Assembly: GCA_035221665.1 (NCBI GenBank)
Contig: CM069164.1
Coordinates: forward strand, 14,570,001 to 14,634,000
Origin: Okamejei kenojei
Lineage: Eukaryota
Length of the DNA stretch: 64,000 bases
Direction: 5' to 3'
The number at the start of each line of letters is the position of its first letter. The first letter of the stretch is position 1. The notes below the pieces were generated by a model that saw only the letters and a list, made by a program, of their open reading frames with translations, was not told where the DNA came from and did no database searches. The translations under genes were made by a program, and so were the position numbers. Below, in pieces: positions 11,116 through 59,385 of this stretch.

Positions 11116-11487
11116 ACTACTATTTGTTTTTATCTGTCGGTGTGAGGGATTTTTGAAAGATTGTTATATAATGGCACTTAGCCTTTCAAAGAAAGGATAC
11201 TTGCGTAGTTAAACTTGGTTTGTTTTATTTAGCATTTGAAAATTTTTTCACCAAACAGGAAAGCTCTGCCAAATTTCATGTGTAGTAAATCATTTATTCC
11301 ATGCCAAGTAGTGGGTGAGTAGATTATCAGTGATGCAGCAAGATCCACATTACATTTAACTGCTCACAGAGCTACAACGTGGCTGTTTCTGCTCAAGCAT
11401 TAGAATATTTGACAAAGGATTCTGAAGCTGGGTTATGGAATACAGTGAAGTTCCCTTTAAGGGGAGCATAGGTTTTCTTTTAAACTG

Positions 11488-11587
11488 AAGATAGACACAA
11501 AATGCTGGAGTAACTCAGCGGGCCAGGCTGCAGCATCTCTGGAGAAAAGGAATAGGTGCCATTTTGGGTTGAGATCCTTCTTCAGAC
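11488..11587 (-). mobile_element. 100-bp Penelope-derived mini-element with degenerate hammerhead and 13-bp TSD
   Basis: TSD TTCTTTTAAACTG at 11475-11487 and 11588-11600; element starts GTCTGAAGAAGG on the minus strand. Confidence 0.85.
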
Positions 11588-12302
11588 TTCTTTTAAACTG
11601 GTGGATTCACTCAAAGGTTAAGGAACAATGTTAAAATATTACCAGATGCATGGCCTGGCTGATTTCCAGATCATCCTCATAATAACCCCAGCTTCATGCC
11701 ATCTGTGATGACACGGTTTTCATTCCGGGCTCCTTTCCAGAATAAACAACAGCAGAAAAATGGTCAGAGAAGCTGGTTTTAATTTTATATCCAGTGAAAC
11801 TCATTACCAGATCAGTTTCCATATCAACACTGGGTTCTCGTTTCAGCACTTAGGGCTCCTCAGTTGGCATGTTGGCATTTGAGATGCACAAGTGTCATGT
11901 CTGCCTCTGAATTCTGCAAATTCCTGGCATTGTTCTAGAACTCTCCAGAAGCTGCCTCACGAGTGAGATCTTGGAGACTAGATAAAGACCATCACTCCTA
12001 TTGGCGTAACCATATCCAACTTCATATCCATTGTAACGTCATCTGCAAAACTATTATCAGCAGACTGGCGTTTGCCATCAATCAGGGAATTGTACACAGT
12101 AAATTCAACATGAACTACGAGAGAAAAAGAGAGGTTGATGTTCAACATTTCACTCATCTATCATTTCACTTCTCAGCCTCCTTTGCTTCAGCAAAAACAG
12201 ATTCAGCCTCACCTTAGATCTCAAGCTCTCCAATCCAGGCAATATCCTTGTGAATCTTTTCTGCATCCCCTTTAGCATAATCATAACTTTGCCATAGTGT
12301 GG

Positions 12303-12435
12303 NNNNNNNNNNNNNNNNNNNNNNNNNNNNNNNNNNNNNNNNNNNNNNNNNNNNNNNNNNNNNNNNNNNNNNNNNNNNNNNNNNNNNNNNNNNNNNNNNN
12401 NNNNNNNNNNNNNNNNNNNNNNNNNNNNNNNNNNN
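12303..12435. other. Assembly gap (133 N)
   Basis: N run inside a CR1 fragment. Confidence 1.
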
Positions 12436-14544
12436 CTGAACCAATGAAGTGTGCCATACACTTTCTTCACCTTCTTCCTACGCCGCCTTCACATCCCTGC
12501 GTACCCTAAAATCTCATTGTTCAACAACATTCCCCAGGGCTCTGCCGTCAGGTGCGAATGTCTAGCACAAGTTTAACTTCCCAAAGCATTTGACAGAGTT
12601 AAAACCATCGACCATTCTCTTACTATTTTTCCTGTTGACCTATACTCTCTTGAAACCTGAAGCAACCTTCTTCACAGTCTGGTTTGTTTGCAAATTTACA
12701 TGCCCTCTACTTTCTCTTACAAATAATGAATACAGATGACAATCAATTATTGTTTAATAAAATGGCCTGGGGAGGAAAGAAAGAAGAGACAAACAAAATT
12801 CTTACATCAAATTCAACATGGTTTCTCTGTTTCCACCATTCAACACGCAACAAATTCCAGATACTAATTGTTCACAGCACAATATAAGCTTTCTACATTT
12901 TGTCTCTGGTTCACTTTGCACACACCTTCCTGACCTGACAAATATATTGCCCTTCCATCTTGGTCACTGTGTCTAAATCCTGAAATTCCCCTCCCGATAG
13001 CATCAAGACATATCTTCACCAGAAAGACCACAGCAGTTCAAAATAATGGCTCATTAAAATCTGTTCAAAGTTGAAATTGTTGATGGTTTCCCTTTTTGAG
13101 TGTAATCCCCTCTTGGTTTTGACTGAAACCATCTAATCTCTTGTGCTTTAAGGAGAACAATCCCAATTTTTCTGTCGATTTTAATCCTTCATCCATGGAA
13201 CTAGTCCAATGATTTTTCTCTGCATCCGCTCCAAGGTCTTGACATCTTCATGATGTGGTGATTGGATAGATTCCAAAGGGGAATAAAGTGCAGAGAGATA
13301 ATAATAATATATCTTATTGTCATTACACATAAGTGCAACGAGATTTGGTTAGATGGGGAAAGAACAATGTGGGGGACTATTTGGTTTGTCAGGCAAATGG
13401 CTTCTTGTGTGCTTAATGGTTCCATGATATCCACTTGCGGCCTTGCCATGACCCAGATCCCCACAGATGTTGTGTAACCATCTTGAACTTCTGTTTCAGA
13501 TAGTAGACTGCAGAATCTAACAATGGATGGCGCTGGTTTGATAACTTACCATCCGTTAATAGTATATCCTATACGGTGAATTGCCATTTTACAGCATAGT
13601 CAGTGGGTTATCACCTTTTTGAAGGGAAGTACAGAAGATGAGGCAGATATTGAGCTTTATTTGGTGCAGTGTTAATTTGGCGCCTGGTATATTTTTACAC
13701 AGCTGTTTGTCACCAAGTTGGGAAATGACCTTGCAAAGTCCATAGATATTTTGCAGCGAAATAGAATTATAGATTGTTTCCTAGAGACAACTGATGTTAA
13801 AATGTTAAAGTACAATTCAGCCAGAATTATATTGGATGTCATTTTTAGTCACAATGTGTAATCTTTTATTATATCTCCAACAGCACAGAAGGAAACTATT
13901 TGAAGCATCAGATCCATGCCAGTTCCCAGGGCAATCATTAATCCCATTGCTCTTTTCGTCATCTCCCTCTATCCTGCAACTTGCATGCTTTTCATATGCC
14001 CATTGTCTCCCTATTAACTCTTTGTGTAAATAGCATATACCAAGGTATAATTTACAACGGCCAGTTTACCTACAAACATACCTTTTGGATGTGGGAGGAA
14101 GCTGTATAACTCAGAAGAAAGCCACATAGTTATGGAGGGGACATGCAAACTCCACTTAGACAGCACCCAAGGCCAGCATGGAAACCGGGTCCCTGGAACG
14201 GTGAGGCAGCAGCTTTATTACCTGCTGCGACATCTCACTCTCAGGACTAAACTAGATTATGTGCTGAATAACAAGGCTGCATTGATCACATTGTCTATAT
14301 ACAGTACATTCCATATGTTAGCCTAGAATTTGGTCTGTTGATATGAAGGAACATTAAGCAGTTGTGGTACAACAGACCTTGTGGGCGTCCGGCTGAAAAT
14401 TGTGATAATGCGTGATAATCCAAGACCACCAGAAGCCTATAGTTTAGCAAAAGTCATAACAAAATCAGAATGATTCTGAGTGTCTTAAAATATTCCAGAT
14501 GTACAGAACTTGATTCTTACCAGTCTTTATTTTCCTTACCACAG

Positions 14545-14707
14545 CTGAAGGCTGCAGATTTACCAGACACGAAAATTCCAGTGGAGTGGATGGAGTCACA
14601 GGCTAGTCTGCTGCTGAAGCTGATGATGCAACAATGTCCAACACAGTATGAACTTGGAAAGCTGTTGCAGTTACTGGCTGATGTGGACTACACCTTTGTA
14701 TCTAATG
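14545..14707 (+). CDS. SPG11: Spatacsin exon (~exon 28), 163 bp
   Basis: acag|CTGAAG...TCTAATG|gtaaag. Encodes LKAADLPDTKIPVEWMESQASLLLKLMMQQCPTQYELGKLLQLL... Confidence 0.95.
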
Positions 14708-17700
14708 GTAAAGATGTTTGCAAATCGAGATCTTTATTAACATAGTGCTTTTTCCCCAACCTTTGCATGCCTTCAAGCACATCACATATACTCAAAGATC
14801 AAGTCACTAGGGATGGGGAATTCTCAATGTTGGGAATCCTTTGAGCGGAGTTTCTACTCGTGTCACTCTCAGGTGGCTGACCACATTTCTAGACTCTGCA
14901 GCAGATCAGCCTCTCAGCATTTGCTTGAAGAACTTTATACTTCAAGTAGATTGCTTGTCATTCTCTGTACAAAAGGTTGTAGGCCCAGTCCAATTCTCTC
15001 TCTTCATCAGCTAATTCCCTCTGCCTAGGAAGGTCTATTAGATTCTAACATTTAGGAACAATATGACCCATAACACTCCATGCTATTTTTTCTCTCGACA
15101 ATTGTTAGCTTCCTGACCCATGTCCTACATTACAAACAGTTCACATGCAAGTTGCGTGTCAAAATGAAGAGCATTTTCTTCCATGAAATCTCCTGTACTG
15201 CCTTAGGTTCCTTACAAAATAAAATGACAATCAGGTGCTTCCTCTTATGTCGGGTAAGAACAGAGCAAGCTACAAACCATCTGCGAACTCTAGTTGTGCA
15301 CCCACACCAAACGGAATCGTTTTGACAAAAGGTTGGGGGCAAGTCACCACCATAGACAATGAAGAATTTGGTTGTCAATAAATAGGAAGCTGTATATAAT
15401 CCTAATACCATGAAGGCTCCAATATTCCTTTTATCTGAGGGATATTTGGTTGATTCACATTTCAAACACCTTGTGAAATACATCACAATATATCTGTTCC
15501 ATAAAAATGTGTCCTCATATATCCCTCATTTTTCTAAACAGTCTCAGTGTTAGAGCTTCTAAACTGCTCTCTTGCCTTTTAGATGTGTTTCAGGCTCCCT
15601 CAAGTGTGATAGCGACTTCAGTCAGATCTTTTTGTAAATGACAGGTTAGAAGACTGTGCCAGGATCATTTTCAGTGGGAATCCGGGATCAGCATTTGATT
15701 TGTAATTGCCTGACACTTTTCAACACTCCCTGTCATGACCCTTGTACCTAGCCGTTAAACAAATGTCTAGGACGGCTTCACTGTGCTTGTGAATAAAATC
15801 TGGTATCAAATGGAAAAATGCAAGGTAATGAAATCAGCACACAGCTCCCAGATCAGCACACAGCTCCCAGATCAGTTTACATCTGAAGGAGCAGGATGGC
15901 ATATGGTTTGCATTATTTGTAAAAGCTTTGATTCCTGAGCAAGGAAATTAATTTCATACAGGATAAACCAGAATATAATCATATGGAAGCAATTTTCTGT
16001 TTGCCATGAATCATACAGGAAGGTGATGGCTTACTGTAACCTCTCTATTCAGCAAATAGGGTATCATTTAAAATGATGTCAAAGATGTTTATTCTACCTT
16101 TTATAGAAGAACAAAGAGCTTGCAAACCAAGTTTCTGCTGAAAGGGAACCCTTGATGATTAGATTCATCTTTTCTTTGGTTTGTTAGCGGAAGAAAAGTC
16201 CCCATTTGAAACTTTTCAGAAATGTGAAATCCTTTTTGAATAAATCACTGGTAACAAAATGAAACTCCACAGAACGTTTTCCTTGCATTCTGCTAATGAA
16301 TGGAACAGCCAGTGTTTGCAGCTCGATAATATTCGACATAAATACTCATGACTGTTCAAATCTGACTGATTTTTGGACATCCTTGACTAATTTGTCTATT
16401 TTAGCAATAGAAGTTATATTTAAGCAGAAACTGCAAGTAATTTAAACAGGAGAAATTGATAACGATGTTGAGTTGCAGTGTGAACAACCACTGTGACTAC
16501 ACAATGCTAGAGAGGACCATGCTATGCTAATCTTCACACACCGTCAGTAGATGGCAGGCTTGCTGTAACCATTAGCCCAGCCCAGGAACAAATTCATCCA
16601 TTCTGTGGAGGACCAACATTAACTGGCTGGGTGCTGGATTCAGGCATTTCTGGGATAAAGTGGGGGATTAGAGAGGGATCAAGACATGGAGCGCGTGTGT
16701 GGCAGGAGCGGCACATGATTCTGATGCAGAGGCAAGAAGAGATTCTGCTGATGTTTTAAGTAGCTTTACAAAAATTACCCCTTGTGATCTCCAGTGGTGC
16801 CATTTAACAGCCAATAATGGTTAGATCAGTGCAAAACATGAATTTACTGGGTGTCTTAGCTTGTGTAGTGGTCAGCAAGGCAGAGATATCCTTAATCTTC
16901 AATCACAGGTCGATACTCGATCCCATTGATGGTGATGTCTGTGTTACTGCCGCACAACGGTCACAGAAACTGTGCCTGAAAATCAGGCAAAACACTCACC
17001 AATTGTTGCCCTCATATGACTATACGAACATCACATTTATTTTCACATTGTTACAATGAAGGAGTTCTGGAACATTTTTTTTATAGATATCTCTGATATT
17101 CTCATGGTTGGGTAACCCTAACACCGTCATATGGCATTTTTTCCTTTTCTGTTAACTTTTTTTTTTCAATTTCACCTCCATTGAAGAAATTGAAACGACA
17201 ATGTTTGTGAGCCCACCTTGCAGAAAAAAGCAACTGGCGTCTGACAAAGGGTCCCAGCTCAAAACATCACCTGTCCATGTACTCTAGAGGTGCTGCCTAA
17301 CCCGTTGAGCTACTCCAGCACTTTGTGTCCTCGTGGCACCTTGAGGCTTTGTTAAAGTCACATTGTCAATCCCAGCATCTCCACCAGTTGCCCCGTATTA
17401 ACTTTGTGTGAAACTTCAGCAGTACATTTTGTTATTAGATAAATGCAGTTCATTGTTTTTTTTAATGCAGCATTTGTCTCAGGCGGATATAACAATAACA
17501 TTAAGCTAAATAATTTTGATATTAATTTGTACTGTATAAAAGGATATTTTTAATTGAAAAAAAAAACCCCTTCCTGCATTGTTGGACGTCATCGTGTCCG
17601 CAGGATATTGATAAATGATGAAGACTTTGTACCAGTTTTGTAGGTTGTACCAAACCCCCAAAAATAAATAGTTACCTCAAAGTTTATTCCACATTTTTGT

Positions 17701-17822
17701 CTTACATTCCTCAGGATAATGGAACTTTGTTACTTGAGAGCAAATATTCCAATTGAATTTTGAAATGTTCACATCTAGTTTATGTTGCAATGCATAATTG
17801 AAGGTTTGTCTTTCATAATTAG

Positions 17823-18037
17823 GTCCGGATTTCCAAAAACTGAGCCAACTTGCTCATCTCCTGCAGGAAACATCAATCTCCATCGATCACTCGCTCTTCT
17901 CTGACTGCAGTGTGGAAACCCTACAGTATGTGTGTGGGAATATTCTGAACCAATTGCAGAAGAAAGGACTCTTTGTTCTCGCAAGGCAGGTGGCAGATCT
18001 TGCTGAGCTGGCGGTGGACAGCTTGCTTGTTGATGAG
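17823..18037 (+). CDS. SPG11: Spatacsin exon (~exon 29), 215 bp
   Basis: ttag|GTCCGGAT...GATGAG|gtgatg. Encodes (G)PDFQKLSQLAHLLQETSISIDH...LARQVADLAELAVDSLLVDE. Confidence 0.93.
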
Positions 18038-18613
18038 GTGATGTTTTTGTTCATTTAGTTTGATCATAGGACAAACCTATAAATTAGGTTTAATATGCCT
18101 TGGTTTTGGTCATATTAATTGTTTTCTCAGTAGAGGGTATTGATGGAACGAGAGCTGTTCATAGATTTAATTCTGATTGGAAAGTTCCTTAGATTAGAAC
18201 CAGAAATAAATGATTGTATTTCAGGACAATACAAAGTGCTTTACAGTATTGCTTGAAATGTAGCCACTGTTCTAAAATGGAGCATATGGTTGACATTCTA
18301 TGCACTGCAAGTCGCGACAAATACCAATTGGATAGCAACCATATTTAATAACACTGTGAGAGGGATATATATTGGCCTGGATGTTGAGGAGAGTTGCCCT
18401 ACTCCTCAAAATAATGCCATTTTTTGACTACGGGAGAGGGCCTTGCTTTTATCTACCAACTGGTTAACAGCATTCCTGACTCTACCGTAGGTTTCACTGA
18501 TTTGATTGAGTATTGAGAGGTAACCAAGAAGATTGATGAAGATAGATGTTATCTGTATGGACTGTAGTAAGACTTTTGACAAAGTCTCACATGGCAGGCT
18601 AGTCCAGAGGGTA

Positions 18614-19354
18614 ATGGGCCTGTCCCACTCAGGCGCTATTTAGGCAACTGCAGGAGATTATGCAGTCGCCACATGTTTGCGGGTGGTTGCTGGGGAGTCG
18701 CCTTCATGGTTGTGAGGAGTTCCCGCATTCTGGGATCTAGTCGTGGCCTCCTTATAGTCGCCGCGAATTGCTCAACATGTTGAAAAATTAGTGGTGACTA
18801 GAATGAAGCCGACATGGAGAGTAGCGAGAATTCTCTATCCGTAGGTAGGTCGGCAGGAGATCCTAGTGGGTTGCCAGGAGGTTGAATCTTCACGTAGGTT
18901 GTAGCCGGTGCTAACCGGTAAATTTCATTGGCTCATTGGGGGGAAAAAACGTAAGCAGTAGTTTTCAGAACCAAGGATAACCTACCGATAATGTTGAATG
19001 TCCGCCAAGCTTCACAGCCGTGTATCTCTGGCTTCTTAAAAGTTGTCTCCACTCCTTCTCCCTCCTATTTTAAAGGACTTACCGTACACTGTGCTTTAGC
19101 GATCTGAATTACAGCGTCAACCTTCCTGTTCATCGCTGTGTGTGTCTGTATCACTTTGGCTTTGCTCTGTGTGAATTTCACTCAGTCAGCGCTCCCCCCC
19201 CCTTGCCCTGTCTTCCATTTGTATAACGGACTGGTGAAGGAAGTGATGTGTGTGTGTGTGTGTGTGTTCCACTCTGACAGTCGCCGTTCCAGTTGCCAGT
19301 TTTTCAAGCGACTGCCGGTAACTTGACAGTCGCCTGAAAAATGGACAGGCCCAT
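18614..19354. mobile_element. Related non-autonomous DNA transposon nested in a CR1 fragment
   Basis: TA|ATGGGCCTGTCC...GGACAGGCCCAT|TA; CR1-like sequence on both sides; shares TCAACATGTTGAAAAAT with the 3088 MITE. Confidence 0.8.
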
Positions 19355-19724
19355 TAGGGTACAAGGCATGAAAGGCATTGGTTGGGTGATAGCAGGTACA
19401 GTGTAGTGGTGCGTGCATGCTTTTCCAAGTGAAAATATGTAACATGGTGTACCACAGGATTGTGCTGCAACTTTCGTTGGTTATAATATGCACAAATGAC
19501 TTGGATCAGAATGTAGGGCTTATGGTTACTAGGTTTTCAGAAGACACAAAAATTGGGATATAGATAACAAAGAAGGCTATGTACAGATACAATGGGACAT
19601 AATCAGCTGGAAAGTTGGACAGCGGAATGGTCAAAAACGTTCTTACAACCATCAGGTTGAACCAACCTGTACAACCTTAATCTTACCTCAACAGTGGAAC
19701 AATATGGACCACCTCTATAATGAA

Positions 19725-19840
19725 GCTGGACACAAAATGCTGGAGTAACTCAGGGGGTGAAGCAGCATCTCTGGAGAGAAGGAATGGGTGACAATTCGGG
19801 TTGATACCCTTCTGCAGACCTGAAACGTCACCCATTCCTT
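19725..19840. repeat. Further Penelope 3'-repeat fragments or fold-backs (also ~1995-2180, 5820-5925, 6575-6615, 17238-17330, 20826-21010, 25025-25560, 28957-29050, 32490-32580, 38245-38320, 39105-39230, 40290-40530, 60110-60285, 61075-61130)
   Basis: Recurrent ctggagtaactcagcggg..cagcatctctggaga / agatgctgcc..gctgagtt..ccagca sequence with decayed CTGAnGA...GAAA cores. Boundaries approximate. Confidence 0.7.
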
Positions 19841-19978
19841 GATCGGTGGTGGTCGGCATGATCTCGATGGGCGGAAGGGCCTTTTTCCATGCTTATTCTC
19901 TAAGCTAACTGAACAAACGAAAATAGTAAATTCCATATTGTGTTTCGATCCATTATTTAATTTCTTCTTCTCTTACAG

Positions 19979-20738
19979 GTGTCTCAGGAGTTACAAGATT
20001 TGAAACGACGTGGTCAGTGGCGAAGGAAGGAGACGAGAATAAATTTTTGGAAAAAGTGCCACGATTGTTTCAAAAAGAATTTGATCTCCAATGTAGTTGC
20101 CTCTGAATTCTTCCTGTCCCAGGCCAATAATAAGCTGTCCACTAAGTCGCAGTCACCATTACCTTTGAAAGAACAGCTTCTGGATATTCAGGAAAAATGC
20201 ATGTTGCTGATGATAGCCGGCTATTGGTTGTCAAGCAGCACCCCACCACTCTTGGAACAGCTGGAGGAGGTGGAGAAGAGGATTTGGTTATGCCACATCA
20301 GTCAGCAGACTTTGCTGATGTCCACAGCTTCAAGGTGTTCATGGCAGGTTTCGATCTGCGGCGAAATTACCTTTGAAGATGCCACCAAAGAGTTCCTGTT
20401 CTCAAATCTGCCGGCTCTGAACTCATCAAAGTACCTCAGGCTGGAAGGATTTCCAAACAAGGACTTGGCGTCCAAATGTAGGCTAGGAGCAGCAGAGAAA
20501 GAGGCCCTTAATATTTTGATTGGCAATTTATTAGATGGAGGATACATCCATGAAGCCAGTAGAGTCTGTAGATACTTTGAATTTTATAACCAGGACTTAT
20601 CACTAGTTCTCCACTGTAGAGCTTTAGCTTCAGGAGAAGCACAAACAACTGATTTCCACCCTACAATCAAGATTCTTTTGACTACAGATGTTGCTTTGAA
20701 TGGAGAGATGAGACACCATCGAAAAAGGACACCAAGCT
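19979..20738 (+). CDS. SPG11: Spatacsin large exon (~exon 30), 760 bp
   Basis: ttacag|GTGTCT...CCAAGCT|gtaagt. Contains RINFWKKC, LEEVEKRIWLC and IHEASRVCRYFEFYNQDLSLVLHCRALASGEA. ORF 19979..20872 reads past the donor into the intron. Confidence 0.97.
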
Positions 20739-21881
20739 GTAAGTTGGTTTATTTGTCATTGTTACAACTCCTTCAGGAGGCCATTTGGCCTACAGTGTTT
20801 GTACCAGGATCTTTGAAAGGGCAGACACAAGAGACTGCAAATCAGCACAATCTACTGGAAGAACTCGACTGATTTAGCAGCAAATGTGGAGGGACAGGAA
20901 TGGCGGACATCTTGCTTCTAGACCCCTGAAGCAGGGTCTTGACTCAAAAAGACATCTACCCCTTTGCCTCCACAGATGCTGCTTGTTGAGATTCTTCAGC
21001 AGTTTGTTTTTCACTCTTTGAAAGAAGTGTCGGAATTTAGTAACTTAATTCCAAGCTTTTTGTCCTAACCTGGTGCGTTTCAAATATTATTTCACAAAAT
21101 GATCTGTTAGTGTGGTCCAGGACCAAACTTCTCAATAACAAAGCAACTGGAAGAGAGTGCTTGCAGACAGTCCAGTAGCAAATCCGATTCATGGTGTTCA
21201 GAAATGGCCATCAATGTGCTGGACTTCACTAGGCATTTGGGATGTTTGAGATAAATGGTGTGGAGGTAAAAGATGTGGGAATGGAAGAGAAGATGATCTC
21301 ATTCCTGTTGATGTCAATTTATGCCCCATCAATAATGTCTTAACAGCTTATAATAGCTTCTCCCATATCACGGACTCTTCAACAAGAGTTTAAGACTCTG
21401 ACAATTCATTCTGTTTATTTTCTTCAGTTTGTATTGATGTAACAACGAGCTTGCAACAGTGTGCTTATTTGTCATGTTAAGAGGCCTCTTAAAATGCAAA
21501 GTTGATAGAGATAGTAAAGGGAGCATTGACTACAGCATAAATCATTCCAATGTTAATTGTTAATTCTAAATGCAATGTAATCCTTCCTCTCCTCATTGGT
21601 GTCAGGACAGTTAATGTTCATCATTGTGAGAACTAACTCTGTCCAACGGGTAATGTTCCTGTCATTGAGCGTGGAATAATTATCACAATGTGAATGGTTT
21701 CACAGATAGTCAATAACTGTGTGTGGAAGAGTTTGGATGTCTAGAAGTATAAGAACTCTGCTGAAGTTTGGGAGTACTGGTTCATTTCATATTCAAGTAG
21801 CACACAAGAAGTGAACAACATTTGTGTGAATGAGGTAAAATTAGTTGGGGTAATTGGACTTGAATGTAATTAACCACCATA

Positions 21882-24044: not shown

Positions 24045-25196
24045 GTACTGCATTACATTTTTCTTACAATTCATGTAACAATCTGGTAACAAATATTACC
24101 ACTGTTCTTAAATTATATGTAGCTAAAAGTAAATCACTGCTAATCAGTGATAAGAAAGAAATGTCTTACTCAATTAGTCCAAATAGATGCCCAGAAATGG
24201 GAGAAGTGATATAAAGTAGGATTGTGTTCTCTAATAATGGTATCATTCCAATCCCTGCTGTTATCCACATTGTGCACTTGATCATTGCCAAAGTGCTGAT
24301 GTGTGAGCAGTAATCAGTCACATTGCTACAAATCACTTGTGCAACTGATGATCATTTACTATCTCAGTTCAAATGCACTGTGCATTCATCTTGGGGATCC
24401 ATTATTTTACTCCATTCTGTTAGTATTTACAGTTATCTTAAAGCAAACTTTCTTAATTTGCAGCATTTGTGCTAAAGTGGATGTTTACAAGAAACGGACG
24501 CTGCACTAATGTCAATGTGATGTTTTTTTTGTAATCCAGTGCAATCCTAATCTGCCTTCTGTCTTGTGAAGCCCTGTTCACTTTAGTGTTAATATTCTGG
24601 CAACAAACACTGCAGTTCATACTGGGCTGTACTGTATTATAGGTCAGGGGTTCAATGCATAATAGCATCATTTATGCTTTTGTCCTCTGACTCCAATTAC
24701 TGAGGCATCATTTGGGAACATTGAGAATTATATACCCTGAAAAAAAATGCTGAAGAATAGACCAAAAGGTAAACAGTAGAGGGATAAATCTGGAAGACAC
24801 TTAGTGATCATCTCCCCAGCAGGAAATATTAGGATTATGAATGATTCTTTGTGAATGTGGAAGGGAACAAGGTTCCAGAGAATACATGCAAGGCTTTCTA
24901 AACTTCCAGAGAAGGTAACTAGAATCATCGCTTCTTACAGCACAGACGATTCCTGTTCAAAACATTATTATTCATAATCTGAAGCTCTCCCTCCTTGTGA
25001 TTGCCAACTGTCTGACTGACTTAGAAACAGAAAATGCGGCAATACAAAAAAATGCAGAAACATCCACCAAGTTAGGTAGTAGCATCTGTGGAAAGTGGAA
25101 CAGCTAACATTTCAGGTCTTTCATCAGAACTGGTAAAGGGAAAAAAATAACGCCTTTCAGAGAAGACGAGGGAGGGATTGGCAAACTAAGAAACAT

Positions 25197-25325
25197 GAGT
25201 CTGAAGAAGGGTCTCGGCCCGAAACGTCGCCTATCTCCTTCGCTCCTTAGATGCTGCTGCACCCGCTGAGTTTCTCCAGCTTTTTGTGTACCCTCGATTC
25301 TCCAGCATCTGCAGTTCCTTCTTTA
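25197..25325 (+). mobile_element. 129-bp non-coding Penelope-derived mini-element with hammerhead motif and 14-bp TSD
   Basis: TSD AAACTAAGAAACAT at 25183-25196 and 25326-25339; core at 25201-25228. Confidence 0.9.
25201..25228 (+). ncRNA. Minimal hammerhead motif, sense in SPG11 intron 31
   Basis: CTGAAGA-A-GGGT[CTCG]GCCC-GAAA-CGTC; the A-to-G variant keeps stem II paired as a U.G wobble. Confidence 0.6.
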
Positions 25326-25964
25326 AAACTAAGAAACATAGTCTACTTCTTATTCATAGTCTAAAATGAGCTGCATTTGCTCATTTGGTCTCACCCTATC
25401 TTAGAATTCCCTTTGTTCTGTGCATCCTACCCCTTCTTGTCTATTATTTCCTCATTCTGATTAAGAGTCCAGGCCTGAGATATTAATTGTTTTTCATTCC
25501 ATAGATTTTGACCGACCTGGATTTTTCCAGCATATACTGTTTTATTTCATATTTTCATAATCCATTTTTTTTTTCTTTTCTAACTTGTTCCTTTGGCATT
25601 TCAGCAGATCTCCTCCCTTAATGTTGTCATTTCTTAGAGCTGTTCCTGGCTCTCTTTACTTTCCGCTGTTCACAATTCCCCTTTCCAATTCTCTACTGTA
25701 CAACATAGCCAAGTCAAGCAGCAGTATTTTACATTTCACACATCAGTGAAAAGTGGTCATTCCGTGTGTGCCTTGTTGCAATAGCTCACCAAGGTGTTTT
25801 GTAATATTAAACCACCAATTATAAGTTTTGTTGGGGCATCCTGATCCATAATTTCACTTGGCTTTTTGAATAAATTATTTCACATCATTAATGAACTGGT
25901 GAAATAAAAAATCACTGAAGAAAAAATTCCGTAGTCACATATTTTTTATTTTCTTACTCTAAAG

Positions 25965-26163: not shown

Positions 26164-26385
26164 GTAAACATTCTGCGATGCTATTTACTGGGTGCCTTGT
26201 ATAGACCTGAGTGCAATTTGTGTATGGAATCCAGAACTCTCAGCAGTGGCTAAAATTCCAGAGTACAAGTTAATTCATTGATAACTCCCAGGGAAAACGT
26301 TAGACTGATTGACGAATAAAGGTCCTCATGTCTGGAAGTTGTATTTTTAATCTGATTCATGACTTCAAAATAAGTTAATTTAAGT

Positions 26386-26514
26386 TTTAAAGAAGGAACT
26401 GCAGATGCTGGAGAATCGAGGGTACACAAAAAGCTGGAGAAACTCAGCGGGTGCAGCAGCATCTAAGGAGCGAAGGAGATAGGCGACGTTTCGGGTCGAG
26501 ACCCTTCTTCAGAC
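26386..26514 (-). mobile_element. 129-bp Penelope-derived mini-element with hammerhead motif and 13-bp TSD
   Basis: TSD AGTTAATTTAAGT at 26373-26385 and 26515-26527; reverse complement of the 25197 copy with one internal mismatch seen. Confidence 0.9.
26485..26512 (-). ncRNA. Minimal hammerhead motif, antisense to SPG11
   Basis: Plus strand GACGTTTCGGGTCGAGACCCTTCTTCAG is the reverse complement of the intact core. Confidence 0.6.
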
Positions 26515-27699
26515 AGTTAATTTAAGTGTTTACATTGGTGAGGAAACGGCAGAGGTAACATCAAACTATTTCATACTTATAAACCACTGCTACAATAATA
26601 TTGGATCTAAAAAGAAAAATTGCAAATGCCAGAAATATGAAATTGAAGTACACTTGGAGGAATGAGAGCTTCTGAAGGAGGGGTCAGCTTTATGTTTCTT
26701 GTGGAGTCCGTCAATTCAGTGTCAGCTCTTTTGGAACGTGTCACCTTATATTAGACTATTGTATTTACTCTATAATTGTATTAAGCACAGGGAGCAAGGG
26801 ATGTGGTGATTATCCTGATTTTGAATGGTATCTCGGGTGATACCTAGCTGGATAATGACAGGAGCAGGATTGAACCCAACCTGATTGTGTTCCAGGCATC
26901 TCGCATGCAATAGTCAATTTTCCACTGAGGTTTCGAGTTGGTCTGTGCCTGAATAATCAGTTAAAAGTCTGACATTCCTTGAACTTTATCCCAGCAAAAG
27001 CCACAGCATTCCAAAAAGAAAATGGGAAAATGGTGCAAACTTAATTAAATCGAGGTGCACATTGCCAGATTTTTATGGGTCCAGAAATAAGTTGCTGATA
27101 TAACTCTTGCCGTCTATATCTGATGCTGTTCCAAAGGATATGTTAATATGCCTTCATAACTGGTCTGAGGACATTTAGTTTTGAAACTATGTTTGCAAAG
27201 TCACATCTGTGTCTTACCCAGTGAGGTCATTATTAAGATACCTGTATCAGATTAAAGTTAAGTTATAAGCTAAACCAGTAAAAATATTGCCAAATTCACT
27301 CGTACGAAGAAATAATTTCTGATTTCAGTTTCATGTCTCTTGGGTTTTTTACATAAGCGGCACGAAAATCTACCCGAACTACAGATTCCTCGAACACACT
27401 GACTGGTGAAAGAACCAAGCCTCCTTTTGTATGAATCTGAAAAAGATTATATCATGAAGTTGATTGTCTATTTGTGGAATTTGTTGAGTTTGTGACATTT
27501 ACCAAGATTAGGGCTGTTCATGGTTCTGTGGTTAAATGGTGCCAAAGTGGTGTATTGAGCATGAGGTGCAGACAAGATAGGACAGGATGTGCTCAATAAA
27601 TTAGGTTAGTTTATTGCCACACGTAACCGAGGTATAGTGAAAAGCTTTTTTCTGGGGGGAGAAAATCCTCCTGGAGAATTGTAGTACACCATTGGATGC

Positions 27700-37235: not shown

Positions 37236-37453
37236 CAGCCACAAAGACAGATGTGTACAGCAATTCATTCTTCCCACGCACTATTAAAGCATGGAATAAT
37301 CTCCACCAAACCACGGTTGCCCAGCCAGATGCAACTAAATTTAAAGTGGCACTTTCTTCCCAATAACCCTCTCTGGCTAAACCCCTCCCTTCATCACCTC
37401 CAGTTTAAATTCCAGTTGGAATATTTTGGAGGATCAAGTAACCAAGAACCAAG
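37236..37453 (+). mobile_element. Short LINE 3' end with (AACCAAG)n tail, distinct from the dominant CR1 families
   Basis: Translates to TDVYSNSFFPRTIKAWNNL; a second tail copy lies on the minus strand at ~60687-60745. Confidence 0.7.
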
Positions 37454-37558
37454 ATAGATAGCTATGGATAGATTACGCCCTGTGACATTTTTTATAGATT
37501 TTGAAATTGTCCAAGGTGTATGACCTAAAACTATCAAACTGCTCTTTTCACGTTTCAG

Positions 37559-37635
37559 AAGTGACTCCTGAGTTGAATAAATCTTTGGTGAAGATTCTGA
37601 GCTTCCTCAAAGATGCTGCTGAGAGCTATGCAAAG
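37559..37635 (+). CDS. SPG11: Spatacsin exon (~exon 37), 77 bp
   Basis: ttcag|AAGTG...GCAAAG|gtaaat. Encodes (E)VTPELNKSLVKILSFLKDAAESYAK. Confidence 0.93.
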
Positions 37636-39532: not shown

Positions 39533-39963
39533 TTGCATTGCCAGAGTGAGCAACACCGCAAGTTGGAGGAACAGCACCTCATATTCTGCTTGGAAAGTCT
39601 GCATCCTTTGGGCTTGAACATTGAATTTTCTCAATTCTGTTTACCCTTGCTGTCTCCTCCCCTTCCCACCTCTCCCTCAGCCCCTGGCATTCCCTCTCTC
39701 TCTCTGTTGCTCTCCCACCCTAGTCGCACCAGCTTCTCATTTTCACACCACAAACAGCTTACAATGGCTTGCTCCCTTTATCATCGATACTTTTTTGCAT
39801 ATCTTTCATTCATTGTTCTTTCTCTCCACATCACCGTCTATATCTCTCGTTTCCCTGATCCCTGACCAGTCTGAAGAAGGGTCTCGACCCGAAACGTCAC
39901 CTATCTCCTTCGCTCCTTAGATGCTGCTGCACCCGCTGAGTTTCTCCAGCCTTTTGTGTACCC
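39533..39963 (+). mobile_element. Penelope-like element 3' fragment with intact hammerhead core
   Basis: ORF 39533 (HCQSEQHRKLEEQHLIFCLESLHPLGLNIEF); CTGAAGA at 39871, GAAACGTC at 39891-39898. Confidence 0.88.
39871..39898 (+). ncRNA. Minimal hammerhead motif, sense in SPG11 intron 37
   Basis: Core identical to the 59263 copy. Confidence 0.6.
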
Positions 39964-39974
39964 GTGTAATTATA

Positions 39975-41110
39975 GTTGGCATGTTTGCAGATAGCATTAA
40001 AGTAGTGGTAAGATAGTGTGGGTGGTTATCAAGAATTACAGCGGGATCTTGATCAGCTGGGCAATTGCCTGAGGAATGGTACTTTGTATGAAATATTTCA
40101 TTTTGGTAAGTCAAACCAGGGCAGGATCTTCACAGTGAATGGTAAGGCCCTGGGGAGTGTTGTCAAGCAAAGGGATCTAGAATAACTACATAGTTCCTTG
40201 AAAGTGGCATCATAGACAGATAGGGAGGTGAAGAAGAGTTTTGGGACACTGGCTTCATCAGTCAGGGAATTGAGTACATTAGTTGGGACAAAAGCAAAGT
40301 GCTGGAGGAATTCAGAAGTTCACACAGCATCTATGGAGAGAATAGACAGGCGACATTTCAGGTTGGGACTCGACTTAAGACTGGAGTTTAGCTGGATTCC
40401 AGTCTGAAGAAGGGTCTCAACCCAAACCATTGTCTGTCCATCCCCTCCACAGATGCTGCCTGACCTGCTAAGTTCCTCCAGCAGTTTATTTTTGTCCAGG
40501 ATTCCAGCATCTGCAGTTTCCTGTATCTCCATAGAAGTTGGGACACTATTACAGTTGTGCAAGACATTGGTGAGGCCACATATGGAATATTGTGTTCAGT
40601 TTTGGCAACCTTGTTATTAGATAGATGCCATTAAGCTGGAGGTAGTGCAGAAAAGAATCTCAAGGGCCTGAGATTCATGAAAGGTTGACCTATCCATATC
40701 CTCTAGAGATGCTGCCTGACCCACTGTATTATTCCTTAGTGCGCTGAACTTATACACGTGTATAAAATCATGAGGAAATATGGTGAATAATATTCCCAAG
40801 GTAGGGGAATCAAGAACAAACGCATAGATTTAGGGTGAGAAGAAAGTTTTAATAAGGACCTCGGGGCCAATATTTACATACAGAAGATAGTGCAGCTCTG
40901 GAACAAGCTGAAAGAGGAACTAATTGATGCAGGTACAATAACATTTAGTTTAGTTTAGGGATACCACATGGAAACAGGCCATGTGAGTCCACACAAACCA
41001 TCGATCACCTGTTAAAAGAATTTGGATCAGGTACATGGATAGGAAAGGGTCAGAGCGATATGGGGCATCTTGTTCAGCAATAGCAATTTGGGCCAAAGGG
41101 CTGTATGATT
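39975..41110 (+). mobile_element. Degenerate CR1 interrupted by Penelope-derived mini-elements
   Basis: CR1-like phrases (ttggtgaggccacatatggaatattgtgttcagttttgg) with inserts at ~40290-40530 and ~40680-40730. Boundaries approximate. Confidence 0.75.
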
Positions 41111-41560
41111 ATGTGACATGAAAGTGCTCTACAGCTTGAATACTGTTGTGAAATGTTGACGGATATGTTTTAGTTAGCTCCATGCTTTGTTCCAGAATAA
41201 ATGTGTAAAAAAATTTTATTTTGATTTATAGCAAGGTTTGTTGAGGTCTATACTCTTAGGTTAAAACCAATGCAAATAAAAGAATTATTTATACTCATCC
41301 CACCCACATAAAGCCATTTAGAGGAAGTATAGATTTATCTGCTGAAGTAGACGGGGAGTGCTCAAATAAAGATTGTTGCTATCTTGTTGTTAGGTATGTG
41401 ATCCTTAATGTTCTGGAACCAAGTTGTTGAGTATGATGGTGCCAACCCAAATTATAACTTGTCCCTTAGTTAATAACTCTGTGGTAATGGGGCTTATGCT
41501 GTCATGTTAAGTCACTGGTTTTCACTGAGTTTCAATACTTGCTAACCTTCCTGTTTCTAG

Positions 41561-41716
41561 GACTCGTGTATCCGCCGAGCCTCTCAGTGTGTGAAGCTAG
41601 CCAAACTGGTGACCCTCCAGCTCCACTTCTTAAACAGCAACCAGGATGTGCAGTTAATTAATCTGCAGAGAAATGACTTGATGACTTGTATCCTCTCCTT
41701 ACCAAAGTTCTATCAG
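41561..41716 (+). CDS. SPG11: Spatacsin exon (~exon 38), 156 bp
   Basis: tctag|GACTCG...TATCAG|gtactg. Encodes DSCIRRASQCVKLAKLVTLQLHFLNSNQDVQLINL...ILSLPKFYQ. Confidence 0.96.
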
Positions 41717-43203
41717 GTACTGTGAATAATTGTTTAGTTACATTAGCTGCATGGATCAATTTAGCTCACTTTAGTTACAGGTTGGCAGAGTGGCTGAACA
41801 CGTTAACGGGTTTGCTCCCCCCCCCCCCTATCTATATCTATCTACCTCGACAGAAAAATTAACAATGAATATCCACAGAAGCCCCAAAACTCTCCGGCCA
41901 TCTTGACTACATATTGTAAGGATTCCATTTATTTCTCTAAGTTTCAGTCTCTCTCAAATTGCCTTCAATTACAAGACTTTCCATACCTTTTTAGCTTAGC
42001 CATAAAGTGTAGCTCAGCTATTCCTGCACTTCAGCTCCCATTCCCTCTTCTTGACAGAGCGTGGATACAGTTCCCCTGATTCTTACAACGGCCATTCATT
42101 CACTCCATTGGCCTTGGTAAGTCACAAGTTGTGCTGGCTTCAACACCACCAGACATATTTGATCTGCGCAGCTCCATCATTGAGACACACCAACCACTTC
42201 CCTTACCATGTCACTTTGTCATTCAACCTCAGGAGATGTTCCTTTACTTCATCCCTTCCGACCAGAAATCAGTGTTTTCTGATGGTGTATGGTCCTACAC
42301 AGGGGCCATTGTGTGTTCTTCCAAGTGAAGAAATGATATATTTCCAATTTTGTTTCTAGTTCAGATTTCCAGCAATGGTTCTTACTTTAAGCTGTTCTTT
42401 TAATTCTGATCTTTTTGTTTCAATTCAGGTAAAGTTGTTGCTGATTTTGCTCCCTTCATCAAGGTTGTGCACAGCACCAGCTTTCCAATTGTGATATGGA
42501 TCAGACAATTAGCTGAGGTTGGGGAGAAATCCAAAGGCTAAAATTGTCTGCGGAGACTAGTGTTTTCTGATGGTGTACACTATTAAATGACAACTTTTTT
42601 GCTCTTCACCTTGGTCACAAACCATAGGTTTGGGAAAGGACGAGAGAGCAGTCCCGAGCTATCTACCTCGTTGAAGACCCTCGGACTATCTTTAATTGGA
42701 CTTTACCTTGCACTAAATGTTATTCCATTTATCATGTATCAGTACACTGGACGGCTTGATTGTAATCATGTATCGTCTTTCCGCTGACCGAAAGCTTTTT
42801 ATTGTACCTCGCTACACATGACAATAAATGAAGTAGCTATGGTGAGTAACTGCAATTTGTAGATGGTACACACCATAGCCACTGTAAACCTGTGGTGAAG
42901 GCAAGAATGTTTAAAAACCCAGGAAAATGTTGAGCTTCCAGCTACACTCATCCAGATAATTAGATTGAGATTACCTGGGGACGGAAAGTCCAGAACAAAA
43001 AAAATGTTGTAGTAACATATTGGAATTCTATGCAATTAACTATCTTGTGAGAAATCAGCATTACTGACAACTCAACCATTAAACTAGTTTATAGACATAT
43101 ACATTCCTATTATAAGCCCCAAAGTCCATTGAGTTTCTTGGTCAATGATAATATTTACCTTAACTGCAGAACTCATTCAATTCATTCTCTTTTTCCTTTC
43201 TAG

Positions 43204-43355
43204 GCTTCCATAGTTGCAGAGGCATATGACTTTGTACCCGATTGGGCAGAAGTTCTTTACCAGCATGTGATTGTTTGTGGTGATTTTGCTTATCTAGAGG
43301 AGTTTAAACAACAGCACCAGCTACAGCACAGCCTGTTTGAGGAAATTTCCACTAA
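43204..43355 (+). CDS. SPG11: Spatacsin exon (~exon 39), 152 bp
   Basis: tctag|GCTTCC...ACTAA|gtaagt. Encodes ASIVAEAYDFVPDWAEVLYQHVIVCGDFAYLEEFKQQ...LFEEIST. Confidence 0.96.
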
Positions 43356-44370
43356 GTAAGTATTATTGATACAAAAAGTTTTAACTATTATTGGACTACC
43401 TCATGTTGGTTGGCTTGGATGATTTAGGCTGAAGGCTCAGTTTCCATGATATATTATTCGTACAGCTATTGGTTGGGAAGGGAGAATTGAGACAAAACCT
43501 AAAGATACACAAATGATTTATTTGTAAGAGAAAAGTTTTTATTTGCTCATTGACAATTGTTTCTAAGGATCTAAATAAAATAAGAAGGTTGGCGTTATTT
43601 TCAGAGCTGATGTAAAGAGTACTGAACCGTGAGAGTAAAATTTGGAAATCAGTATTTTCACTGTTTGAGTAGACTGGAATTAAAGTTTTTAGATGTGTAA
43701 ATTAAATGTCTTTTATTGTGGGGCATCATTCCTTCTGCCTGACTATATAATGAATGCTTGGACATCTCAGACTCCCTGAAAATCATGCTTGTTAGTGACA
43801 GCTGCCCATGTCACTGACTGGAAGGTAGTCATTCCACTGGGTAACCAGCAGGTTCTGTGGGAGGAGAAATGTAATCTTGATTTCTGGTGTAAGAATATCC
43901 AGTGATATCAAAGGAGGAATATTTAAAAGCAGCCAGTCAGGTAATGTAAACAACCAACAGATTGTAAAATTTCACCTGGTTCTGATATCCTTCAAGGAAG
44001 AATTTTGGCCCCCTCTCTTCAGTCTGGCTCATGAGTGAATCCAGACCCATGGTCCTCTTAACTATTCCGTTATTTCAGGGTCAATTAGAGATAGGTAACA
44101 CACCAAGCTGGTGTCCTATTATTGAAGAAATACAAAAATATGGCCCATAATCTTGTTTTTGAGCATGGGAAAGAGAAAATATTATAAATTTGCCAGTCGA
44201 TGTTCACACCACACTGATATAAATTATCACAGAAAGTAACAAGAATAAGATTTGTGAAGCCAAACTGAATTCCAGTTATAAAGATGTTTGAAAAGAGAAT
44301 CCATGCAGTAAATAAAAATATTTCCTTGTACAAGATTGGAAAATGGGATGTCTTTTTTTAATACTTCCAG

Positions 44371-44551
44371 ATTTAAACAGCAAAAGGGAAATGCTGGAGC
44401 AAGTCAAAATCTGAAGCGGTTACTGCAGTACTGTGAAGATGTCTACCTGTTTTATAAAATGGCTTATGAACACAATTTCACAGACATTGCAAACAAGCTC
44501 CTTAAAGAACCCCAGACAAGATGTTACCTAAAAGACATGATTGCCAGCTAA
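44371..44551 (+). CDS. SPG11: Spatacsin terminal coding exon (~exon 40) to TAA stop
   Basis: ttccag|ATTTAAA...AGCTAA. Encodes FKQQKG...NLKRLLQYCEDVYLFYKMAYEHNF...LLKEPQTRCYLKDMIAS*. Confidence 0.96.
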
Positions 44552-44674
44552 GTATTTATGCTCTAAGTTTTCAGTTTGGGTTGAAGCTCAATACATATAA
44601 ATAGTCTGTTCAGATTGTAAAAAAATGTAATTATGTAAATATGTTTCGCTTTTGAGTTGACCAATATTTCACTG

Positions 44675-44868
44675 GTAGACACAAAAAGCTGGAGTAACTC
44701 AGCGGGACAGGCAGCATCTCTGGAGAGAAGGAATGGGTGACGTTTCTTGTTGAGACACTTTTTCAGACCTTCTCTCCCGAGATGCTGCCTGTCCCGCTGA
44801 GTTATTCCAGCGTTTTGTGTCTATATCTTCGGTTTAAACCAGCATCTGCAGTTCCTTCTTACACATTA
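44675..44868. mobile_element. Fold-back Penelope-derived mini-element in the SPG11 3' UTR with 12-bp TSD
   Basis: TSD AATATTTCACTG at 44663-44674 and 44869-44880; inverted arms at 44676-44731 and 44768-44823. Confidence 0.88.
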
Positions 44869-47741
44869 AATATTTCACTGATGTTTAGTACAATGCTTAT
44901 TTACATTCAGACTAAAAGCAACTATGTCTTGGTGAATGAATAGTACGGACCCAGTGTACATATACAGCTGCTACTTGGAAATAGCAGTTGAGCAAAGTGC
45001 AGTACAGGGTAGAGTTTCTGAATGGTATTAGAGTGACTACCATGCAATTATCCTTCATATGTAAATTAAAGCCCAAGAACATGCTGGCACTGAATACAAT
45101 GGCTGAAATAAAACAATGATTTTTTTTTTGTCTACATGTTTTTGCTGCCTGCATCCATTCACTGGTCTGTACCATCATCACAGGTCTGTAACAATTGCAC
45201 TGAATACTCAGAAAGTAGCCATAATTACCAACTTCTAGCACCTGGCCAGAATGCATGATTTAAGATTACTAAAGCATGTATGACAGTAATACAAACCTCT
45301 CATAGTAGCACCATCTCATCTATACATATCTAGGCTAGGGTCTGGAAACAAAGGCAGGTAGAAGGACCCATGGGATTTGAACCTTGAACCAGCAGGATAT
45401 TTAATGAATAGGGCTGCCAATTTTATGTGACAGGTAAAGCATGGTTGGGAAAGGTTTCTTTAATTGTACACAGCCCCTGCAAGGGTGGTGTCATGCAGAC
45501 TTTTACAGACTATAATTTACCAGAATACAAGGAAAGTAGTATAGTGGAAGAAAATGGGATTGACCTACCTACAGCTGGTACTGACTTGTGGTGGCTGAAT
45601 GGCCATTTAACCATACTGTTATCACTAGCAGTTTCAGATCAAGCCTTGCAGGAATGATATTTCAATATAGTGTCTTGGATGACCACTTGTTCTCCTGGAG
45701 GTAAATAATTAGCAGTTAATATCCCATATATAAGGCAAAACCATTCTAGTATAGTACAATTCTGATCTCACAGGAGTGAAATCAAAGATGGGTAAAATTA
45801 GAAAAGCAGTCCTCTTTAAATAAAAAAAGTTATAACAAATGGGAATGTATGCTGCAATCTTTGTAAAGCACAACCAGGTCTGGTTTATATTTTCTGAAGG
45901 GCACGAGAAACAATGCAGAAAATGATATTATATTCATTTATTTTCCTGAAACATAGCAAGTGTCCAATTATGTTTACATGTAGTAAAGCCTTCCTGACTA
46001 ATCAACAACAGATAAGATTAATGTAAAAATAAATTACTCATCTGTTGTACTGTTCAATGGATAGTGGGAAGTTATGTTTCGTATAATAAATTTGGGACAG
46101 GTAGAGAGGTCAATACAAGAGCTACTGTTAGCTGTTTGTGTTCAAGACTGCAAAATGCAAACATTGCTAATTAAAATAATACCAAGGAATTTTGAAAATA
46201 ATGCATAATTTCCCATTACGAAGAAATTATACTAGGTTGCAAAAGCACCTCATGATCATTGTAGAATCTATGTAAAGTGCAGTTAAAATGAATAAACTGA
46301 ACATTTACTGCACTGATGTCACTTAATACCCACTTCCAACCCATTACAAAAGACCGGCCAGAGTTACAGCTGGTAAGCAGCACATGCCTTCAACACTGTG
46401 CAAGAGAGTTTATCCCACAACTCTAGAGTGGAATATGTAAAAATAAAGGCCACATTTCACACTGCAGCATTTTCATTGAAGTTTCTGCATTCAGTTCCAT
46501 TAGTGCAAGTCGCTGGCATGAAGATTTCATGTAATTTCCCCTATTGTTAGCATCTTTGATTCAAAACCCTTTCACAAGGGTCTACTTTCTGCTATCTCAT
46601 GCTTTCAACAAAAATGCTTAAAGCCAAATGCCAGGTCTCTGATAGGACCAATTAAATAGGCAGCATCGAAACAAGGCAAGTAAGTTTCCCTGACTTGCCT
46701 AAAGCCAGACTTCAAAGTATAATCCCATTTAAAAAAAAGTGGCATCAGTCCAGTCTGTCAACCAGTCAGTCATTCCTCGCCACAAGCTAAGCCAGCAAAG
46801 TGGGCGTTGTTGCAACTAGATTTTGTCCACACCAGTCATACATTAAGTGAGAACACCTAGGCCAATGGGTGAACTCTCCCCATAACCCCAGCCGCACAAT
46901 ATTTTACCCCTGAAATAAGAGTATGGTTTTTATATAGCACCTCTCACAAACTCAAGATGGAACAAGGTGCTTTACAGCCAATTAAGTACTCTTTGTAGTC
47001 ACTGTTTTAATGCAAGAAATGCAGCAGTTAATCTGTAACCGGCAAGCTCCCACAAACAGCAATTTGATGAAAAGATCATTATTTTAAAGTGATGGTGGAA
47101 GAGCAAAGAGAGTAAATGGAAATGTTATATTCTTTAAAGTCTTCAATTTCCCAAGGAGGCGGGGCAAAAAAAGAAACACCATAAGGAGATCACATGGCTC
47201 TTGCCTATTAGCCCAATTCAGAGTAAGCATGGAGCATTGCGGGCATGTTCTCTTAAGGCAGACTGACTCGGAAACCAAAAGACACAATGTCAGAAAATCA
47301 GGTTCTCTAGTTGGACTGTTTTAGTTTCTGAGAGAGAAAACACTGGCAAAATTTAAGAACTTCTAAAAATAGTAATCCGACTCTGCAATTCTACAGTATC
47401 ACAATAAACGTGATATTAGGTCAGTTCAGGTCACAATATAGATGCTGAGGCATTGACACTGCAAGGCTCCATATTTTTTTCCAAATATATAGCTCTCTTC
47501 CCCACCCACCCCAAATCCATGCAGGTACTTTCTCCACAGTGCTATGTGAGTGTTGTCACTGACAGTAACGATGCGTAATTATGGTACCAGTAGTAAAACC
47601 TGTTGATGTTATTATGGGGCATCCAGTGTCCTGGCTAGTTCCATAACAACGCAAGGGTTCTGTGCAGCTCAAGGACAAACCAGCAACAGGAGATTGTCTA
47701 CAAAAAACATGCTGGAAGAAGCCTGGGTCATGAGGACAGGA

Positions 47742-59352: not shown

Positions 59353-59385
59353 CCCTTAGAATTATAAAGCAATCTTCATTTTTAC

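Follow-up and report, generated by a model that had tools for sequence, protein, structure and literature searches.

Hammerhead-Bearing Stubs in the Skate Okamejei kenojei as Separately Inserted End Modules of an Abundant Neptune-Type Penelope-Like Element

Introduction

Penelope-like elements (PLEs) that code for an endonuclease of the GIY-YIG type (EN+ PLEs) carry pseudo-long terminal repeats (pLTRs), and thousands of single hammerhead motifs in metazoan genomes have already been described and ascribed to truncated PLEs (PMC4209133; here and below, statements on published work refer to the cited sections of the sources). Also published is an optional tail that is borne by one of two inverted arms (PMC3846280, PMC8557442), and in the Poseidon element of the lizard Anolis carolinensis two reverse transcriptase (RT) start sites bound such a tail of 30–40 nt, hammerhead cleavage being dispensable (PMC11167929). 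The regeneration of pLTRs was said to have no evident mechanism in the cited part of PMC2377424, and the later steps of PLE insertion were left unvalidated in that of PMC11167929. We analysed 64,000 nucleotides of the genome of the skate Okamejei kenojei (GCA_035221665.1, contig CM069164.1, forward strand, positions 14,570,001 to 14,634,000; hereafter the window), in which an initial annotation had described four small hammerhead-bearing inserts as a mini-retroelement class of their own. Our comparisons indicate instead that the inserts are genuine copies, each inserted separately, of the 95–130-base end module of a very abundant Neptune-type PLE. These stubs are of a known kind: they arise as by-products when a known element copies itself, keep a record of that copying, and reveal no new class of element. 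About half of the copies of this module stop at one boundary, probably because the element's protein primes at two internal sites and its complementary DNA (cDNA) runs out of template at a fixed 5′ end of the RNA, which is likely to be a transcription start.

Results

Throughout, position 0 is the C of CTGAAGA, an arm is one copy of the module, and arms are called tailed when they end near +127 and untailed when they end near +92. As first annotated, the four inserts are separate and each is bounded by an exact direct repeat, of 13, 14, 13 and 12 bp in window order (Table 1); the identical search at 3000 random window positions found direct repeats of at least 12 bp at five of them (0.17%), some probably being real inserts. 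Three of the inserts had been thought to begin near CTGAAGA, and in fact all four have an arm that starts at −2 to −4. The insert at 44675–44868 is bounded as described, but is not one plain insert, as it consists of two arms placed head-to-head. The TTAAA reported at the 3′ junctions is present in all four; however, it is mostly the end of the element's own tail plus one or two target bases, and in the 11488 insert it is microhomology with the target.

Inserts 25197 and 26386 share 99.2% identity with the 5′ repeat of L112, a full-length copy, in agreement with the recent activity that had been proposed, and only these two have an intact hammerhead core. In inserts 11488 and 44675 the core carries substitutions, and these two are 81–90% identical to the other repeat copies compared. 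The module is also the 3′ repeat of three GIY-YIG fragments, as annotated, and of a fourth at 58091–58530 that had been missed; the window holds about 20 more, older module copies, four of them as 3′ repeats of endonuclease fragments. An Rfam search returned no family at its gathering score.

A protein search of the same genome gave 16,424 candidates, of which 150 were scored and 20 loci with long frames were fetched. L109 is full-length, with a 5′ repeat (2612–2790), an open frame of 1190 codons, a 3′ repeat extending to 6725 and an 11-bp target-site duplication (TSD), and L112 likewise has repeats at both ends. The Penelope origin that had been proposed is thereby upheld, the module standing at both ends of a full-length RT–GIY-YIG copy; of the 165-nt 5′ untranslated region (UTR) it makes up the first 130 nt. 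A DKG motif is visible in the L109 protein and a CX4CxxC linker precedes its endonuclease. As a CX2-5CxxC linker before GIY-YIG is a feature of Neptune and Nematis that is absent in Penelope and Poseidon (in the cited section of PMC8557442), we assign the parent by this linker criterion to the Neptune-type EN+ PLEs; a "Poseidon-like" label was dropped in favour of this one. The other EN+ PLE features are found as well, i.e., pLTR direct repeats, partial tandems, inverted arms, the optional tail and a hammerhead in the pLTR. The L109 protein (L109:2827–6360, ~1180 residues in total) has a proline-rich stretch of ~300 residues between its N-terminus and the RT, and a PDB sequence search with the RT–endonuclease part found no match at an E-value of 1. 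By exact-pattern matching, which underlies all our genome counts, one 33-mer of the module occurs 56,997 times and one 40-mer of a single module lineage 37,532 times in the 2.76-Gb genome.

The preferred 5′ boundary that had been proposed from the window holds genome-wide, both by exact counts and in two samples of 100 arms from one contig (C1). Patterns reaching upstream from the module matched 30,035 (from +5), 13,052 (from −8) and 11,374 times (from −21); only 43.5% of copies thus continue across the 13-nt boundary as against 87.1% across the next 13 nt, from which we conclude that ~50% of copies stop there. In the first sample 55 arms start at −7 to +4 (two of these being sister-lineage upstream sequence and not truncation), 12 at +6 to +18 and none at +19 to +30, and the 33 longer arms comprise eight starting at −8 to −63 and 25 with scattered starts further up. 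The second sample, anchored further 3′ at +47, again has 55 starts at −7 to +4 (~5 sister-lineage), with 14 at +5 to +18, one at +20, four at +27 to +33 (one artefact and three partner arms) and two later. Other lineages also start near −2, as judged by eye in 36 incidental copies. Random distribution of 5′ ends, the contrary outcome named in the initial annotation, is not what these data show. The 5′ junctions themselves are uneven, with microhomology and small inserts. At two loci (L048, L076) a young-lineage module stands behind sister-lineage upstream sequence with the switch at the boundary, which would point either to a lineage of its own or to a template switch from one lineage to another. 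Searches of the open-access literature turned up no paper that describes the fixed boundary or, for cartilaginous fish, this element.

The candidate hammerhead of the 25197 insert has the core, a bulged A, a 4-bp helix II with a tetraloop and a palindromic helix III, its helix I being only 2 bp long, and self-cleavage is predicted after +27. Helix II pairing is retained in 91–96% of 387 contexts, with one-sided changes only, and given the shared ancestry of the copies this is not evidence of covariation. Cleavage was rejected as the source of the boundary, as had been anticipated and in line with its dispensability in Poseidon (PMC11167929): genomic starts do not pile up at the cut site, where the first sample has none and the second has the four mentioned above. 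The partner arms of four inverted inserts (L016, L040, L056, L062) form a cluster of starts at +29 to +31, just past the predicted cut, which is too small to be judged.

The 3′ ends are bimodal, falling into clusters at +88 to +100 and +119 to +127 (about +92 and +127) that lie 35 bases apart. Of the 100 sampled arms, 38 are stubs, 34 belong to inverted inserts and 28 are long copies, and 19 of the 38 stand-alone stubs have TSDs of at least 11 bp. Insertion as separate events with TSDs, as had been proposed, is thus upheld. A TSD could be called for 75 of the arms, giving 66 distinct TSDs with a peak of 24 at 13–14 bp; calls of 7–8 bp are near the chance rate of 10.7%. Inverted events number 24; in 21 of them a tailed arm is combined with an untailed one, one has two tails and two are unclear (21 of 22 clear events, p = 5.5e-6 against 50%). 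From this we infer that each nick primes at its own site, and such a one-site-per-arm rule favours priming from both nicks over self-priming. The two arms of an event may stem from one RNA, as they carry the same variants in 15 of the 19 events that could be scored, against a shuffle mean of 8.3, but in three to four events they differ. At window positions 40295–40518 there is an older two-armed insert, one arm tailed and one untailed, without a clear TSD. Recurrence of the same two-armed insert in identical flanks (L143, L145, L149, L157 and L158; L016, L081 and L133) indicates that it was multiplied inside a larger repeat. Other stubs (L258, L112 at 6455–6548, L043) lie, flanked by TSDs, in a 5′ or 3′ UTR of the element itself, and L055:1176–1893 is a tandem array of a short unit from mid-module that lacks the hammerhead core.

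A preference for priming at a TT/AAA target, which had also been proposed, was not borne out. TTAAA or TTTAA occurs in one of 43 distinct 11–16-bp TSDs, TTAAA lies within 12 nt of none of 62 untailed ends, and the tail's TTAA is followed by A in 11 of 24 cases and by C in another 11. The TSDs are 61% AT as compared to 53% in the loci.

Table 1. Module copies, related features and joined copies (window coordinates unless a locus or contig is given)
Feature	Position	Strand	Remarks
TSD of 11488 stub, 13 bp	11475..11487; right copy 11588-11600	.	exact direct repeat
Single-arm stub	11488..11587	-	starts -2, untailed end; older lineage, altered hammerhead core
TSD of 25197 stub, 14 bp	25183..25196; right copy 25326-25339	.	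exact direct repeat
Single-arm stub with 35-nt tail	25197..25325	+	starts -3, preceded by one additional G; intact core, young lineage
Minimal type I hammerhead motif (predicted)	25201..25228	+	from pair counts and descriptor features of PMC4209133 (cited section); predicted cut after 25228
TSD of 26386 stub, 13 bp	26373..26385; right copy 26515-26527	.	exact direct repeat
Tailed single-arm stub	26386..26514	-	starts -2; 128/129 identical to L112 5' repeat
5'-truncated PLE	39536..39963	+	last part of endonuclease frame, 3' UTR rich in pyrimidines, module; 93% identity with full-length L109
TSD of 44675-44868 insert, 12 bp	44663..44674; right copy 44869-44880	.	exact direct repeat
Untailed arm of two-armed head-to-head insert	44675..44768	-	starts -2
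Tailed arm of the same insert	44769..44868	+	5'-shortened to about +36
Older 5'-truncated PLE	58091..58530	+	endonuclease fragment and module (58425-58530)
5'-truncated PLE	58855..59356	+	GIY-YIG fragment (weak hit, E 0.041) and module
5'-truncated PLE, sister lineage	62216..62710	-	endonuclease fragment 62367-62710, module 62216-62317
+160 to -1 joins	L217 C3:2.61 Mb; L218/L219 C16:47.18 Mb; L223 C12:69.47 Mb		both arms of the inverted C16 insert share the join
Other-register joins, boundary to +158..+167	L235, L255, L256, L257, L260, L261, L262

Elsewhere in the window, an open frame at 19961–20872 (+) gave no Pfam hit; it resembles what we take to be an exon of spatacsin (SPG11), a name that Pfam did not confirm, and if this is right the inserts lie in or beside the SPG11 gene. 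Fragments of long interspersed element (LINE)-type RT, presumably CR1-like, lie at 62697–63986 (+) (RVT_1, E-value 1e-36) and at 9365–10579.

Discussion

We consider it probable that the boundary is the place at which cDNA made by the element's own enzyme runs out of template. After nicking the target, the protein would begin reverse transcription from either of two internal sites in the RNA. The cDNA would run off a fixed RNA 5′ end just before the hammerhead, and the product would be the module's first 95 or 130 bases. The two target strands would be nicked ~13 bp apart, each nick priming at its own site with the aid of a few bases of microhomology, and the two cDNAs would then be joined head to head, or a single cDNA joined to the target. 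The fixed end may be a transcription start at an initiator-like YCAGT, which matches the initiator consensus; in Penelope of D. virilis the pLTR contains an internal promoter that lacks a TATA box (PMC2377424). Long copies would derive from templates carrying upstream sequence, obtained either when tandems are read through or when the enzyme jumps off the RNA 5′ end. By analogy with the lizard element, which in vitro requires sequence beyond its second start site (PMC11167929), the stubs, having none past +130, would be dead ends.

Several points weigh against this account. The boundary is ragged over ~12 nt; both boundary samples are first hits on their contig, with some arms paired or duplicates; and the L109 frame matches RVT_1 (E-value 4.5e-4) and GIY-YIG (2.7e-3) below the curated Pfam cut-offs. 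The non-native base before AGTCTG, in the first 100 of 3,580 copies, is A in 42, G in 36 and T in 22; with G only mildly enriched, a cap-derived G as proof of the start site was given up. An untemplated A before −1 is likewise no marker, as it is frequent among 1,650 copies, yet T and C occur too and several cases are target microhomology. The lizard protein uses the same start sites on both strands in vitro (PMC11167929). Finally, the boundary is a textbook splice acceptor as well, and in D. virilis it is an intron and not the start site that ends at helix I, the start lying ~120 nt upstream (PMC4209133, PMC2377424), i.e., 46 nt before a 75-nt intron, an arrangement that favours splicing.

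It is accordingly possible, if unlikely, that splicing sets the boundary. A pyrimidine tract, a branch-like motif and the YAG at −4 to −2 would form a working acceptor, and cDNA would end either where splicing factors sit on the RNA or at RNA ends that unfinished splicing leaves behind; with a donor-like site on the start codon, at +161, the module would become a 162-nt exon and the entire open reading frame (ORF) an intron. The acceptor features are conserved across lineages; YAG is present in 41 of 57 distinct upstream 16-mers, and a branch-like CTRAY in 21 of 57 as compared to one of 63 control 16-mers, these sequences being related; the +161 site scores 7/9, the best near the module, with the 3′ UTR containing none; and the intron of D. 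virilis ends at helix I (PMC4209133). However, the branch-like A of other lineages is placed further upstream, yet their starts are still near −2 (36 copies, by eye), and a shared upstream exon on stubs was absent from 171 contexts, in which no element-derived exon precedes the boundary apart from one self-insertion.

Joined copies bear on the same question. An exact exon-junction search found three arms in two events and a looser one a third event, so that three events (four arms, one with two mismatches) join +160 to −1 in the splice register. These could stem from spliced or circular RNA or from a jump with 2-base microhomology, which also yields the exact register. The exact junction as proof of splicing was further weakened by at least eight other element-derived joins in registers of +158 to +167, seen in 50 read matches among 100 listed of 128; one of them is a stub inserted into the 5′ UTR with its own TSD. 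All joins number about ten in more than 56,000 copies. The other-register joins imply, as far as their sequences can tell, short RNAs that end near the start codon. Two of them (L255 and L261) are near-complete head-to-tail dimers with a unit of ~165 nt. The joins fall at −5 to −1, with the upstream unit starting again at −3 to −1 in three of them (L255, L257, L261). This agrees with run-off where the RNA physically ends, combined with rare jumps from end to end of the kind that R2-type enzymes make. L258 is also joined to +215 through a short A run, and L224, another candidate join, is actually a deletion at the ORF start.

We regard it as improbable that the boundary marks a stall of a 5′-to-3′ exonuclease or of RT at a folded, protein-bound hammerhead on a longer RNA. 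The boundary does match the 5′ strand of helix I (−2, −1), raggedly, and the lizard hammerhead folds productively only with protein (PMC11167929). Nevertheless, the 3′ side is the one from which a polymerase would meet the fold, yet few starts fall within it and most of these belong to partner arms, and the 162-nt module is of ordinary stability (z −0.15; −1.78 for the 129-nt unit).

The separate class of the initial annotation, i.e., a self-propagating non-autonomous family (retrozyme-like, or like a short interspersed element) with its own masters, mobilised in trans by TT/AAA priming, is very improbable: although stand-alone stubs are frequent among the sampled arms and half of them have TSDs of at least 11 bp, the short RNAs implied by the joins (ending at +158 to +167) are possible templates, and retrozymes have been proposed to derive from pLTRs (bioRxiv 10.64898/2026.07.22.740005), short and ORF-linked copies are alike at the three variant sites compared, with no stub-specific variants (TT in 45 of 68 short and 23 of 32 long copies, AA in 13 of 68 and eight of 32), a tally that already points to stubs interleaving with ORF-linked copies, and alike in tail frequency (nine of 38 stubs, six of 28 long copies), untailed stubs cannot template tailed ones, the 5′ junctions are ragged and not uniform, the TT/AAA motif is absent, and the loci read have neither a cut-site pile-up nor tandem unit arrays beyond rare dimers. 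As to tandem arrangement, the sampled arms included one direct dimer (L034), to which the rare joined dimers are added.

Priming with run-off would bear on an open question, namely how PLEs regenerate their tandem ends and which template is copied. The tens of thousands of young copies are in vivo footprints that make the PLE mechanism testable, the useful ones being the fixed stop point, the one-site-per-arm rule and the rare end-to-end joins. Speculatively, and on balance we think it rather unlikely, strong-stop-like replication of the PLE could be combined with use of the module as a 162-nt exon that yields retrozyme-seeding RNAs. Both nicks would be primed at two fixed sites near the RNA 5′ end, followed by run-off; an end-to-end jump to another RNA would be required to acquire the ORF, and failed jumps would leave the tens of thousands of stubs; with a donor on the start codon, splicing or back-splicing would give ORF-free hammerhead RNAs. 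If true, such RNAs, retro-copied as dimers, would seed animal retrozymes.

Comparison with Described Systems

The skate element resembles EN+ PLEs of the Neptune type (PMC8557442, PMC3846280) in its single ORF with RT, CX4CxxC linker and C-terminal GIY-YIG, in its pLTRs, 5′ truncation, inverted arms, TSDs and solo pLTRs, and in the optional tail of 30–40 bp on one arm. In contrast, published truncation is variable, and half of the copies stopping in one 13-nt window is unreported in the cited sections of these papers; nor are the skate targets in our sample microsatellites, except for L035. The solo pLTRs of rotifers were described, in the section cited, as either lacking TSDs or standing at the flanks of captured DNA, and rotifer PLE frames of 830–840 residues (PMC3846280) are shorter than the ~1180 residues of the L109 protein.

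As in Poseidon of A. carolinensis (PMC11167929), two internal start sites bound the tail, targets are AT-rich, and both target strands appear to be nicked and extended. Unlike Poseidon, in which the ORF runs from helix II and the start sites lie within it, the skate sites are in the 165-nt 5′ UTR; and where the cited part of the Poseidon study had no strand difference and no start-site homology, we find one site per arm and short microhomology at the junctions.

The putative hammerhead has the core, the bulged base after A9, G10.1–C11.1 and the palindromic helix III of minimal type I hammerheads (PMC4209133), in which helix I has 4–5 bp; that of the skate has 2 bp, as in D. virilis, and helix II has 4 bp and a tetraloop. 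The section cited gave no analysis of insertion boundaries. Non-long-terminal-repeat retrozymes (PMC7229834; bioRxiv 10.64898/2026.07.22.740005) are likewise small, non-coding and pLTR-related, carry a type I hammerhead and may occur as monomers; however, they form tandem repeats and ribozyme-processed circles, whereas the skate stubs are single or inverted, TSD-flanked copies whose ends lie away from the predicted cut site.

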